This document shows, one piece after another, positions 16,674 through 44,640 of a stretch of DNA of 64,000 nucleotides. Position numbers and translations under genes: made by a program. Location: contig CAZGXX010000007.1 of assembly GCA_964530085.1 (NCBI GenBank), positions 1,410-65,409 on the forward strand. Direction: 5' to 3'. The DNA is from an uncultured Azospirillum sp. Its GTDB lineage: Bacteria; Pseudomonadota; Alphaproteobacteria; Rickettsiales; UBA3002. The notes below the pieces were generated by a model, which made no database searches, had not been told where the DNA came from, and saw only the letters and a program-made list of their open reading frames with translations. Positions within the stretch are counted from its first letter, which is position 1, and each line of letters opens with the position of its first letter.

Positions 16674-16695
16674 ATGTGAAGCTTTTGTGACAATT
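16674..16695 (-). promoter_or_regulatory. Pho-box-like direct-repeat element (variant copy 1)
   Basis: In gene orientation the sequence is AATTGTCACAAAAGCTTCACAT. TATAGT follows 21 nt downstream, on the minus strand at 16654-16649. Confidence 0.4.
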
Positions 16696-16721
16696 GAGGG
16701 CACGGGCGACGGCGGGAGCGC

Positions 16722-18227
16722 CTAGTGATTGATCCGTTTCTTGTGCTTTTCGAAGGGGTTATTGCTTTCCTTCAGAATCAGCCGGATGGGGGTGCCGTTG
16801 AGGCCGAACGTGCTGCGTAGCCCAGCGGTGAGGTAGCGCAGGTAGGATTCGGGGAATTCCTCGGCCATGTTGCAGAACAGGTGGAACGTCGGCGGGCGCG
16901 CCTTCACCTGCGTGATATATTTGATTTTGAGGCGGCGGCCACGCACCAGCGGCGGGCTGTGATGGGCGAGGGTTTCCTCCAGCCAGCGGTTCATGGCGGC
17001 GGTGGGCACGCGGCGGTTCCACACCTCGCGCGTGGTGAGGCAGGCGTTGAGCAGCGCATCCATCCCCACCTTGTTAAGGGCAGAAACCGGTGCCACCGTA
17101 ATGCCCGCGAGCTGCGAGAGCTGCTTGCCCAGCATATACTCGATTTCCTCGAGCAGCGCTTTGCGTTCGCCGGGTTTGATGAGGTCCCACTTGTTGAGGC
17201 CGATGACGCAGGCGCGCCCCTCGCGCTCGACGAGGGAGGCCAGCGTGGCGTCCTGCTTCTCGAGCGGCGCGGTGGCATCGATGAGGATGACGACGACCTC
17301 GGCGAAGGTCAGCGCGCGGATGGAGTCGCTCACCGCCAGCTTCTCGATTTTCCCCTGCACGTTGGCGCGTTTGCGCATGCCCGCCGTGTCGTGCAGCGTG
17401 AACTTGGTGCCGTGATAGTCAAACGGAATGGCGATGGTGTCGCGCGTGATGCCCGCTTCGGGCCCGACCAGCAGGCGGTCTTCGCCGATGAGGGCGTTGA
17501 CCAGCGTGGATTTCCCCGCATTCGGGCGGCCGAGGATGACGAGGTTGATGGGTTTGGTAGAGGTGGCCGGTGGCTGGTGGCCGGTGGCCAGTGATTCTTC
17601 GTCTTGTTCGATTGCCTCTTCAAACGGTGCATCCGGCGTGACTTTCGCGGCACGTTTTGGTTTTTTCTTCCGCTTCTCTTTTGCGGCACTGGCCACTGGC
17701 CACTGGCCACCGGCCACCGCTTCTCCCTCCATCATCTCCCGCAGCACGTCGTATAAATCGCCCAGCCCCTCGCCATGCTCGGCCGAAAGCAGCACGATGG
17801 GCGTAAAACCGAGCGAGTAAATATCCCCCGCCGCGTTGGCACGGCTCGATTCCGCCTTGTTGGCGATGAGGATCATCGGCTTGTTCGACATGCGCACCAG
17901 CTTGGCAAAATGCGCGTCCATCGGCGTTACGCCCTCGCGCGCATCGATAACGAAGAGCAGGATATCGGCTTCGTCCATCGCGAGTTTGGTTTGCGCGAAC
18001 ATACGGGTGGCGAGCGCGTCGGGCGCGGCCTGCTCCATGCCTGCCGTGTCGATGAGGCGGAAGCGCAGGTCCGACAGCGAGGCATCCGCATAGCGGCGGT
18101 CACGCGTCACGCCCGGCTGGTCATCCACCAACGCCAGTCGCTTGCCGACGAGGCGGTTAAACAGCGTCGACTTGCCCACGTTCGGGCGGCCGATAATCGC
18201 GATCAGGGGGTGTGACGGAATGCTCAT
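16722..18227 (-). CDS. der: ribosome-associated GTPase Der/EngA
   Basis: Two GTPase domains (GRPNVGKSTLFN...DTAG...NKAE and GRPNAGKSTLVN...DTAG...NKWD) plus a KH-like C-terminal domain. Confidence 0.95.
   Translation of the reverse strand: MSIPSHPLIAIIGRPNVGKSTLFNRLVGKRLALVDDQPGVTRDRRYADASLSDLRFRLIDTAGMEQAAPDALATRMFAQTKLAMDEADILLFVIDAREGVTPMDAHFAKLVRMSNKPMILIANKAESSRANAAGDIYSLGFTPIVLLSAEHGEGLGDLYDVLREMMEGEAVAGGQWPVASAAKEKRKKKPKRAAKVTPDAPFEEAIEQDEESLATGHQPPATSTKPINLVILGRPNAGKSTLVNALIGEDRLLVGPEAGITRDTIAIPFDYHGTKFTLHDTAGMRKRANVQGKIEKLAVSDSIRALTFAEVVVILIDATAPLEKQDATLASLVEREGRACVIGLNKWDLIKPGERKALLEEIEYMLGKQLSQLAGITVAPVSALNKVGMDALLNACLTTREVWNRRVPTAAMNRWLEETLAHHSPPLVRGRRLKIKYITQVKARPPTFHLFCNMAEEFPESYLRYLTAGLRSTFGLNGTPIRLILKESNNPFEKHKKRINH
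17562..17719. repeat. inverted-repeat element embedded in frame in the der inter-domain linker
   Basis: The 32-nt arms at 17562-17593 (GGTGGCCGGTGGCTGGTGGCCGGTGGCCAGTG) and 17688-17719 match 29/32 as reverse complements. Each arm is 4 tandem (G/A)GTGGCC heptamers, and the spacer is 94 nt. Confidence 0.7.
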
Positions 18228-18294
18228 CCGCCGCTTATAGCAGCGATTTGGCTTAGGGGAAGGGGGAATCTGGGGGTGATGGCGCGTAGATTAG

Positions 18295-42793: not shown

Positions 42794-42893
42794 CGTCATT
42801 GCGAGCATAGCGAAGCAATCCAGCCCCCTTAAAAGAATACTGTCGCGCAGACGCGCGACGCTGGATTGCTTCGGCCTTTGGCCTCGCAATGAC
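42794..42893. repeat. composite palindromic element (GTCATTGCGAG / CGAAGCAATCCAG type)
   Basis: CGTCATTGCGAGC-ATAG-CGAAGCAATCCAG (42794-42823) is mirrored by CTGGATTGCTTCG-...-CTCGCAATGACG (42861-42893). The central hairpin is GTCGCGC-agac-GCGCGAC. Confidence 0.6.
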
Positions 42894-42960
42894 GATTTTT
42901 TCTAGCATCTTCACGGATCATCGGATAATCCGATCATCCGATCATCCAGCGGAGTTCCCC

Positions 42961-44619
42961 ATGGCAAATCATCAGTTCGTCTACGTCATCAAAGGCCTCA
43001 CCAAAACCTATCCGGGCGGGAAAACCGTGCTCAAGGATATCTGGCTGAGCTTTTTGCCCGGCGCGAAGATCGGCATTGTCGGCCATAACGGCGCGGGGAA
43101 ATCGACCCTGCTTAAAATCATGGCGGGGATGGATACGGAATTCAACGGCGAGGCGTTCGCTGCCGAGGGGCTGAAAGTTGGCTTCCTCCAGCAGGAACCC
43201 AAACTCGATGAGACACGAAGCGTCCTTGAGAACGTGATGGACGGCCTCAAGGAAAAGCAGGCGCTGCTCGACCGCTATAACGAAATCATGGCCGATTATT
43301 CGGATGACGTGGCGGACGAAGCCGCGAAGCTGCAGGACGCCATCGACCATGCGGGCGCGTGGGATTTGGAGCGCGAGGCCGAAGTAGCGATGGACGCGCT
43401 GCGCTGCCCGGATGGCGCGGCGAATGTGGCGAAGCTTTCGGGCGGTGAGAAGCGGCGCGTGGCGCTGGCGGCACTGCTGCTCAGCAAGCCCGACATGCTG
43501 CTGCTCGATGAACCGACCAACCATTTGGATGCTGAATCCGTCGCGTGGCTGGAGAATTACCTGCGCAATTACCCCGGCACGGTGGTGATGGTGACGCACG
43601 ACCGCTACTTCCTCGATAATATTACGGGCTGGACGCTGGAGCTTGATCGCGGTGAAGGCCGTCCGTATGAGGGCAACTACTCCGGCTGGCTGGAGCAGAA
43701 AGCGCGCCTGCTGAAGCAGGAAGCGAAGGAAGAATCCGCCCGTGCGAAAGCGATGGAAGAGGAACTGGAATGGGTGCGTAGCTCGCCCAAAGCGCGTCAG
43801 GCGAAAAGCAAGGCGCGGATCAAGGCCTATGAAACCATGGTGGCGGAGCAGAGCGAAAAACGCGCGAGCACCGCGCAGATTATTATTCCGGCGGGCCCAC
43901 GCCTTGGCCAGCAAGTCATCGAGGCGAATGGCCTCAAGAAAGGCTTCGGCGACCGGCTGCTCATCGATAATCTCAGCTTCAGCCTGCCTCCGGGTGGTAT
44001 TGTGGGCATCATCGGCCCCAACGGCGCGGGGAAAACCACGCTGTTTCGCATGATTACCGACAACGAAAAAGCGGATGCGGGGACGTTCACCGTGGGTTCC
44101 ACCGTGAAGCTCGGTTATATCGACCAGTCGCGCGATTCGCTGAATGACAAGGCCACCGTGTGGGAAGAAATCTCCGGCGGCGCGGATGTGATCGAGCTCG
44201 GTAAGGCGAGCATGAAAAGCCGCGCCTACTGCTCGGCGTTCAACTTCAAGGGCCCCGACCAACAGAAAAAAGTCGGCAGCCTCTCAGGCGGAGAACGCAA
44301 TCGCGTGCATCTCGCGAAAATGCTCAAAACCGGCGCCAACGTGCTGCTGCTCGATGAACCGACCAACGATCTTGATGTGGAGACACTGCGCGCGCTTGAG
44401 GAAGCACTGCTCGATTTCGCGGGCTGCGCCGTGGTCATCAGCCACGACCGCTGGTTCCTCGACCGCGTGGCGACGCATATCCTCGCCTTTGAGGGCGATT
44501 CTCATGTGGAATGGTTCGAGGGCAACTACGCCGATTACGAGGAAGACAAGAAGAAACGCCTCGGTGAAGCGTCGGTGCAGCCCAAGCGGATTCGCTATAA
44601 GAGCCTGCTTGCGGCGTAA
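42961..44619 (+). CDS. ettA: energy-dependent translational throttle protein EttA (ABC-F)
   Basis: Trimmed to [56 protein letters not shown], which is collinear with E. coli EttA. About 552 aa. Confidence 0.95.
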
Positions 44620-44640
44620 ATTGTCATAAAAAATTCACAC
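44619..44640 (+). promoter_or_regulatory. Pho-box-like direct-repeat element (variant copy 5)
   Basis: AATTGTCATAAAAAATTCACAC, overlapping the ettA stop codon. The weak hexamer TACGAA follows 22 nt downstream. Confidence 0.35.

Follow-up and report, generated by a model that had tools for sequence, protein, structure and literature searches.

The Pho box is built of 11-nt direct repeat units, in which 7-bp repeats related to CTGTCAT alternate with an A/T-rich 4-bp spacer (PMC4415409). In Escherichia coli, PhoB and region 4 of the sigma factor bind jointly in the -35 region (PMC3348028). A regulon logic similar to the one described here is found in the PmrA-controlled Dot/Icm effector regulons of Legionella and Coxiella (PMC6989116, PMC2701608), and the PmrA site has served as a feature for effector prediction (PMC2701608). 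We analyzed a window of 64,000 nucleotides (64 kb) from an uncultured Azospirillum sp. placed in the Rickettsiales (UBA3002) by GTDB (assembly GCA_964530085.1, contig CAZGXX010000007.1, positions 1,410 to 65,409; coordinates below count from the first nucleotide of the window), in which a 22-bp direct-repeat element precedes five genes at a fixed distance from a -10 hexamer. In sequence the element is a Pho box, and it departs from the known kind in promoter position, which is not 10 nt from the -10 hexamer, and in regulon content, which is not phosphate acquisition. We consider it probable, at roughly 0.6, that a PhoB-type response regulator acts via Pho boxes on a large regulon of lineage-specific genes. 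Literature searches gave nothing specific on this motif or on PhoB-controlled effectors in Rickettsiales.

The five copies reported in the initial annotation were recovered as described, including all coordinates, the single gene-relative orientation and the complete identity (22/22) of the copies at 22 and 42 kb. These class B boxes, as we call them, lie at 16674-16695 (minus strand, site 1), 22191-22212 (minus, site 2), 41295-41316 (minus, site 3), 42332-42353 (minus, site 4) and 44619-44640 (plus, site 5), with the core TTGTCAy-N-AAA-NN-TTCAy at 16676-16693 (TTGTCACAAAAGCTTCAC), 22193-22210, 41297-41314, 42334-42351 and 44621-44638, respectively. All are intergenic and oriented toward the gene downstream; site 4 occupies a 69-bp divergent gap between a methyltransferase gene and tadA, and site 5 begins at the stop codon of ettA. 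The pattern TTGTCAYNAAANNTTCAY without mismatches retrieved exactly these five sites, and with two mismatches it retrieved a single extra one, the distal box of a 940-aa gene described below. With two mismatches allowed, dinucleotide-preserving shuffles gave a chance expectation of 0.34 matches and a maximum of 2. A position weight matrix (PWM) built from the five sites scored them at 33-37 bits, and the next best match in the 64 kb reached 12.5 bits. The copies read TTGTCAy-(A/C)AAA-nyTTCAy, which gives the two 7-bp repeats, 4-bp spacer and 11-bp period of a Pho box at all five sites; the first repeat matches the CTGTCAT type at six of seven positions and the second retains TCAy. Site 3 additionally carries a weak third half-site, CTTTAAT, after its core.

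Each core is followed by a -10 hexamer on the same strand. Site 1 has TATAGT at 16649-16654, 21 nt after the core, with TGC before the hexamer as in extended -10 elements, and the start codon lies 16 nt further on. Site 2 has TAGGAT at 22165-22170 (gap 22 nt, preceded by TGT, start codon after 30 nt), and site 3 has TAGAAT at 41270-41275 (gap 21 nt, start codon after 42 nt), with TATAAT at the equivalent place in the related locus L046. At site 4, TATAGT occupies 42306-42311, 22 nt after the core, and the ATG follows after 6 nt, from which the methyltransferase mRNA is predicted to be leaderless. The weakest of the five is the -10-like TACGAA of site 5 at 44661-44666 (gap 22 nt, preceded by TGC, start codon after 23 nt). 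These re-measured distances agree with the 21 or 22 nt and 6-42 nt first given. No -35 hexamer was found in these five promoters or in that of the 940-aa gene, where TTGACA, with a spacing of 16-19 nt allowed, was matched at three of six positions at most, as befits a Pho promoter.

The 940-aa gene (36817-39639, minus) displays the textbook Pho arrangement. Its promoter reads, in order, the distal canonical box TTGTCACACAACTGTCAC (39710-39727, minus), 15 nt, the proximal canonical box CTGTCATAAAACTGTAAC (39677-39694, minus; class A), 10 nt, and the -10 hexamer TAGGAT (39661-39666, minus), with the two boxes in 11-bp phase. This two-box layout recurs in loci L120 and L105. A canonical Pho box ends about 10 bp from the -10 hexamer and replaces the -35 element; the five class B boxes, with gaps of 21-22 nt, are displaced from that position by exactly one half-site with helical phase preserved. 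The initial annotation had placed them one helical turn further out than at the 940-aa gene, and this is exact, 21-22 being 10 + 11. More generally, the distances from box to -10 hexamer of 10, 21-22, 32 and 43 nt all equal 10 + 11k.

To place the motif more widely, one genome per species in GTDB was scanned with the pattern RATTGTCAYMAAANMTTCAYA, which returned at least 117 loci; per-genome counts are lower bounds, and counts of matched loci and sites in this and the following paragraphs refer to the matches listed. The same 21-mer pattern lies upstream of pstS, followed by pstCAB-phoU-phoB, in two Roseomonas metagenome-assembled genomes (MAGs), and upstream of pstS in one other alphaproteobacterial MAG (pstS loci L026, L060 and L088). 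It also precedes ppk in four Burkholderiales MAGs (L003, L058, L100 and L112), lies beside phoB in a Syntrophales MAG (L097), and in Acidithiobacillus forms part of a four-half-site array located 10 nt from a -10 hexamer before a transporter gene. The sequence therefore serves known genes of the Pho regulon. Because its matches precede pstS and ppk and fit the definition of the Pho box as an 11-nt direct repeat, it is, on sequence grounds, a genuine PhoB operator in four classes of Proteobacteria and not merely "Pho-like". The core had at first been described as resembling a degenerate Pho box, a likeness that the pstS and ppk promoters of other Proteobacteria bear out. No close DNA match was present in E. 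coli genomes.

Uncultured MAGs with the label Rickettsiales or Alphaproteobacteria are the nearest relatives of the window. The Lake Mendota MAG JBIIEL01 comes closest, its syntenic blocks being 82-94% identical at the DNA level. Some 36 MAGs that carry the label Alphaproteobacteria, Rickettsiales, "Azospirillum sp." or Pseudomonadota account for about half of the loci and are referred to here as related MAGs. GTCAC or GTCAT forms the first repeat in all five window sites and in 69 of 69 related sites. A hexamer TAnnnT starts 19-21 nt after the 22-mer at 51 of the 69 related sites and at 5 of 58 sites in other taxa, so that the fixed spacing to a -10 hexamer extends across the lineage, and TG precedes the hexamer in about 50-60% of related sites, giving an extended -10. 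With downstream open reading frames (ORFs) called mechanically, the start codon of a long ORF stands exactly 6 nt after the hexamer in 11 of 50 related promoters, and in none at 5, 7 or 8 nt; this peak is a signature expected of leaderless mRNAs and lends separate support to the placement of the -10 hexamers. The initial annotation had named equal frequency of the motif in coding DNA as evidence of a dispersed repeat. In fact the sites face a downstream start and avoid open frames: 5 of 67 (7%) fall within long ones, whereas 77% of positions drawn at random from these loci do (p = 9e-34).

In sister genomes, box and -10 hexamer stand out as islands of identity within diverged spacers. Site 1 is a 26-nt conserved island amid diverged flanks in comparison with the relative L101, and at site 3 a 31-nt island is kept in L046 and L121. 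Site 4 is kept in L046, L121 and L120, and site 5 is kept before an orthologous 113-aa gene in L120 and is absent in L046. In L120, a more distant relative whose methyltransferase is 54% identical to that of the window, the box is found before the methyltransferase gene and again after ettA, before the orthologue of the 110-aa orphan of site 5, and the double canonical box is kept before the counterpart of the 940-aa gene. L120 itself is a 74-kb contig (JACCDH011271356.1) of assembly GCA_013558355.1. Judging from its accession numbers, this assembly has over 1.2 million contigs, which points to a large metagenome or to the genome project of a eukaryote, and thus possibly to host association.

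Most of the loci above were obtained with the motif itself. Two further comparisons are free of motif ascertainment, as their loci were taken by protein search alone. Among methyltransferase loci found in this way, the box is present in all three relatives with DNA available and in the window's own Logan contig. In a Pfam-less family of about 190 aa, whose homologues share 38-58% identity, the strict core together with a TGTTAttCT -10 element was found at seven of seven loci. Conservation upstream of orthologues, proposed as a check in the initial annotation, thus holds in both sets. The genes of the ~190-aa family (L122-L128) also carry a leader motif, CTAGrnATAAAGCC, about 40 nt before the start codon and between it and the -10 element in all homologues. 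They belong to a conserved cluster of four Pfam-less genes adjoining rpsD, in which the upstream pair of genes is preceded by a second box at two or more of the loci.

Of the 65 downstream proteins in related MAGs, a set that includes four window orphans, 62 lack a Pfam match, compared with 2 of 35 for neighbouring genes on three related contigs (Fisher p = 1e-20); the predominance of orphans first noticed in the window is therefore stronger than had been claimed. About one-third of the 65 have internal hydrophobic segments and only two have one at the extreme N-terminus, according to a crude hydropathy scan, and no eukaryote-like domains were found among them. In the window, five of the six controlled genes encode proteins without a domain and one encodes a generic methyltransferase; their GC content at third codon positions (GC3) is 0.57, compared with 0.73 for 30 domain-bearing genes (p = 7e-6). 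No secretion-system domain was detected among about 45 scanned proteins of the window, which covers a small fraction of the genome. We estimate that the regulon comprises dozens of genes per genome, judging by how densely second sites occur in the loci analyzed.

These features may be combined into the following scheme. Each 18-bp core is a Pho box, in which the 7-bp repeat TTGTCAy is followed at an 11-bp interval by a second in direct orientation, nyTTCAy. A PhoB-type regulator with an OmpR/PhoB winged helix, most likely the PhoB orthologue of the lineage, would bind it head-to-tail as a phosphorylated dimer. At the five genes the box would lie at about -51 to -34, centred near -42.5. The canonical position, which overlaps the -35 region and is used at the 940-aa gene, would be one half-site (11 bp) further downstream and on the same face of the helix. 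With no -35 element and a mostly TGn-extended -10, transcription would probably depend on the bound regulator recruiting RNA polymerase, and some transcripts, that of the methyltransferase included, are predicted to be leaderless. Induction would follow from whatever activates the regulator, the simplest candidate being phosphate limitation. Class A and class B boxes together would define a conserved regulon made up almost entirely of lineage-specific, compositionally atypical, fast-turnover genes and not of genes for phosphate uptake.

Comparison with described systems indicates where this arrangement is familiar and where it is not. It shares with the Pho regulon the 11-bp direct repeats, the absence of a -35 element, the 10 + 11k phasing and a sequence also used by pstS and ppk promoters, but it differs in its extended -10, in a second repeat that is consistently nCTTCAy and in targets that are nearly all domain-less orphans. 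Promoter classes in which the distance from box to -10 hexamer differs by whole helical turns were reportedly described for Salmonella PhoP by Zwir et al. in 2012; the likeness would lie in one OmpR-family regulator serving several such classes, although regulator and box are different and the PhoP promoters were mapped experimentally, whereas the present ones are deduced from sequence. The cre-tag of CreB, TTCAC-N6-TTCAC, is likewise a direct repeat in 11-bp register, is resembled by a GTCAy-N6-TTCAy reading of our motif and has an identical second repeat, TTCAC; however, the first repeat here is always GTCAy, and the motif is found together with canonical Pho boxes and agrees with the promoters of pstS and ppk. 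PmrA repeats are TTAA-rich, unlike the TGTCA/TTCAC type found here, the phylum is different and the window scans revealed no type IV secretion genes. The comparison with PmrA made in the initial annotation holds as an analogy of regulon logic only; the sequence is not a PmrA site. A last difference from the Pho regulon concerns position, since the single box lies one half-site upstream and does not overlap the -35 region where E. coli PhoB binds with sigma (PMC3348028).

Several observations weigh against control by PhoB. The five boxes are off the canonical 10-nt position, and none of the 65 downstream proteins in related MAGs is recognizable as a phosphate-acquisition protein, so that the controlled genes do not appear to act in phosphate acquisition or sparing. 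No phoB, phoR or pst gene was found in the 64-kb window or in related loci totalling about 480 kb, for which Roseomonas proteins served as queries for pst and phoB, and the only OmpR-family regulator of the window (54115-54858, plus) has a KdpE-like recognition helix. Lineage membership followed GenBank labels, which are imperfect: L088, with pstS downstream, was placed outside the lineage and L027, labelled Verrucomicrobiae, inside. Finally, the second half-site varies systematically with spacing, which could mean two related regulators. Canonical boxes 10 nt from the -10 hexamer occur in related MAGs too, again before orphans; in a comparison restricted to sites outside the selection by the search pattern, the second repeat is CTGTmAy in 5 of 5 sites with 10-nt spacing and nCTTCAy in 12 of 12 sites with 21-23-nt spacing, with TTAAT in two of the latter. 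The difference may reflect either one regulator, under different constraints where its downstream protomer occupies the -35 region together with sigma region 4 (PMC3348028), or two related regulators.

The second of these possibilities would have class B boxes bound by a PhoB-derived paralogue, CreB- or PmrA-like in function, with the shifted specificity TTGTCAy-N4-nCTTCAy, its own position at -42.5 and another cue such as host contact, leaving class A to PhoB proper. The strict tracking of half-site type with spacing, the lack of phosphate-uptake genes downstream and the likeness of the GTCAy-N6-TTCAy reading to the cre-tag fit this explanation, which we nevertheless regard as unlikely, if worth keeping in mind. 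A single regulator for both classes seems preferable because in other Proteobacteria the promoters of pstS and ppk have the class B-type sequence as their strong upstream box, because both box types share single promoters in phase, as in L105, which suggests one cooperatively binding protein, and because both classes drive the same kind of orphan gene. Besides L105, class B-type and canonical boxes stand in 11-bp phase within single promoters at the window's 940-aa gene and in L120. The OmpR-family protein at 54115-54858 itself, acting with the neighbouring hybrid kinase at 55482-57179, is a very improbable candidate for the regulator: no other winged-helix response regulator is encoded in the 64 kb, but its recognition helix YLRVYIGQIREKL is KdpE-like and without the RRLR residues of PhoB, it scores 158 bits against a PhoB model with a cut-off of 296, and PhoB sites in other bacteria have the identical DNA motif. 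This orphan regulator gene is convergent with that of the hybrid histidine kinase (55482-57179, minus), and no kdp genes lie nearby. An NtrX-type regulator gene beside a site in L048 was considered and set aside as unrelated.

Other explanations dispense with an operator. The 22-mer could be the conserved end of a dispersed repeat, or of a mobile promoter-gene cassette spread by transposition or site-specific recombination, given that two copies are identical at 22/22 positions, that orphans occupy variable slots between housekeeping genes and that the cargo of site 1 differs between sister species with the box kept. Likeness among the copies nevertheless ends at about 22-31 bp, no terminal repeats or recombinase lie nearby, and spacing to the -10 hexamer and orientation are constrained; neither the shared flanks and terminal repeats nor the freedom of position of a dispersed repeat or miniature inverted-repeat transposable element (MITE) were thus observed. 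Moreover, the motif accompanies members of one protein family that are as little as 38% identical, and promoters of pstS and ppk in distant phyla use the same sequence, which makes this origin about as improbable as the window regulator. Chance matches are more remote still and are refuted: the motif is AT-rich, as is intergenic DNA relative to the genome with its 57% GC, but five exact matches far exceed the expectation from shuffles even with two mismatches, a gap of more than 20 bits separates them from the next PWM match, and the motif is kept across species. One Pho-like match at 14116-14133 was rejected as a sixth site owing to its GC-rich spacer and its location inside a nested hairpin element. 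That element (14043-14258, intergenic, downstream of ubiA) is a nested palindrome in which imperfect inverted arms of about 30 nt, composed of GTGAGTGG heptads, flank an inner hairpin with 30-nt arms, and it could be MITE-like or a structured RNA.

The controlled genes of the window are scattered among housekeeping genes that include der, ettA, tadA, thyX, mipZ, malate synthase and gshA. Behind site 1 lies a 114-aa orphan (16288-16632, minus; GC3 0.54), for which no Pfam or NCBIfam match was found. In the sister species, the corresponding slot between der and gshA (window 16288-16695, L101 2732-3199) has 21 of 22 box positions conserved and contains a gene of 130 aa that is not detectably homologous, so that either the promoter was kept and its cargo replaced or the cargo has diverged extremely fast. 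Close by, between der and a tRNA-Arg gene (19368-19444), a 357-aa ORF (18295-19368, minus) has a GC3 of 0.36, compared with about 0.73, and no NCBIfam match; der and the tRNA gene are adjacent in L101, and the ORF therefore looks like a small island inserted at the tRNA.

The 170-aa orphan behind site 2 (21622-22134, minus) also lacks Pfam and NCBIfam matches, and a search of 1.84 billion representatives yielded one other matching cluster, at 38% identity. This distant homologue (L129, 2001-2528, GCA_030427685.1) lies between a histidine phosphatase gene and ppk and is preceded by a degenerate box, AATTCATCGAATCGTCAC, followed after 22 nt by TACACT; its setting gives a faint link to phosphorus metabolism. 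Behind site 3, a 138-aa orphan (40811-41227, minus) without Pfam or NCBIfam match shares 40% identity with a 269-aa protein of L046 in the C-terminal half of the latter. The gene behind site 4 (41322-42299, minus) encodes a 325-aa class I S-adenosylmethionine methyltransferase (Pfam Methyltransf_23/11) with a helical N-terminal domain and only four homologues found; its structural model has a predicted local distance difference test score (pLDDT) of 77, and its structure matches give the generic class I methyltransferase fold and no functional clue. Site 5 precedes a 110-aa orphan (44690-45022, plus) with a Lys/Arg-rich C-terminus and no Pfam or NCBIfam match, which is 64% identical to the 113-aa protein of L120; this gene is missing from the closest relative and present in a more distant one. 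The 940-aa orphan has Gly-rich hydrophobic segments, no Pfam, NCBIfam or PDB match and one homologue, of 44% identity, among 5.8 billion proteins. A two-piece alphaproteobacterial transfer-messenger RNA (tmRNA) gene (39754-40124, plus) adjoins the upstream end of its promoter divergently and is followed by sspB (40287-40814, plus), which encodes the adaptor for ssrA-tagged proteins, a neighbourhood kept in L120.

A 198-aa minus-strand ORF (42318-42914) that covers site 4 is spurious, being the reverse strand of tadA (42369-42785, plus). The genome is GC-rich, and the long R/H-rich ORFs at 40218-40910, 45058-45771 and 49972-51153 also look like reverse-strand artefacts.

Beyond the regulon itself, it is possible, although we hold this more tentatively, that in this widespread uncultured alphaproteobacterial lineage the ancestral phosphate regulator PhoB or a direct descendant has been co-opted as the master switch of a large set of rapidly turning-over, lineage-specific proteins that are secreted, membrane-inserted or host-directed, via a dedicated promoter class. 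That class would consist of a Pho box at -42.5 and an extended -10, often with a leaderless transcript. If so, the box would be a sequence tag for the effector-like genes of this lineage, as the PmrA site is in Legionella and Coxiella. A PhoB-type promoter class with its box one half-site upstream and a distinct second repeat would also be relevant to the ways in which OmpR/PhoB regulators reach RNA polymerase from one position or another. All that is known of the lineage comes from metagenomes; beyond its bounds most of the controlled genes lack homologues, and they otherwise offer no functional handle. A promoter signature that can be scanned for unites these genes in one testable regulon and allows candidates to be listed in any new MAG, and it predicts both their transcription starts and their inducing condition, which may be phosphate limitation or a host cue acting via the same pathway.

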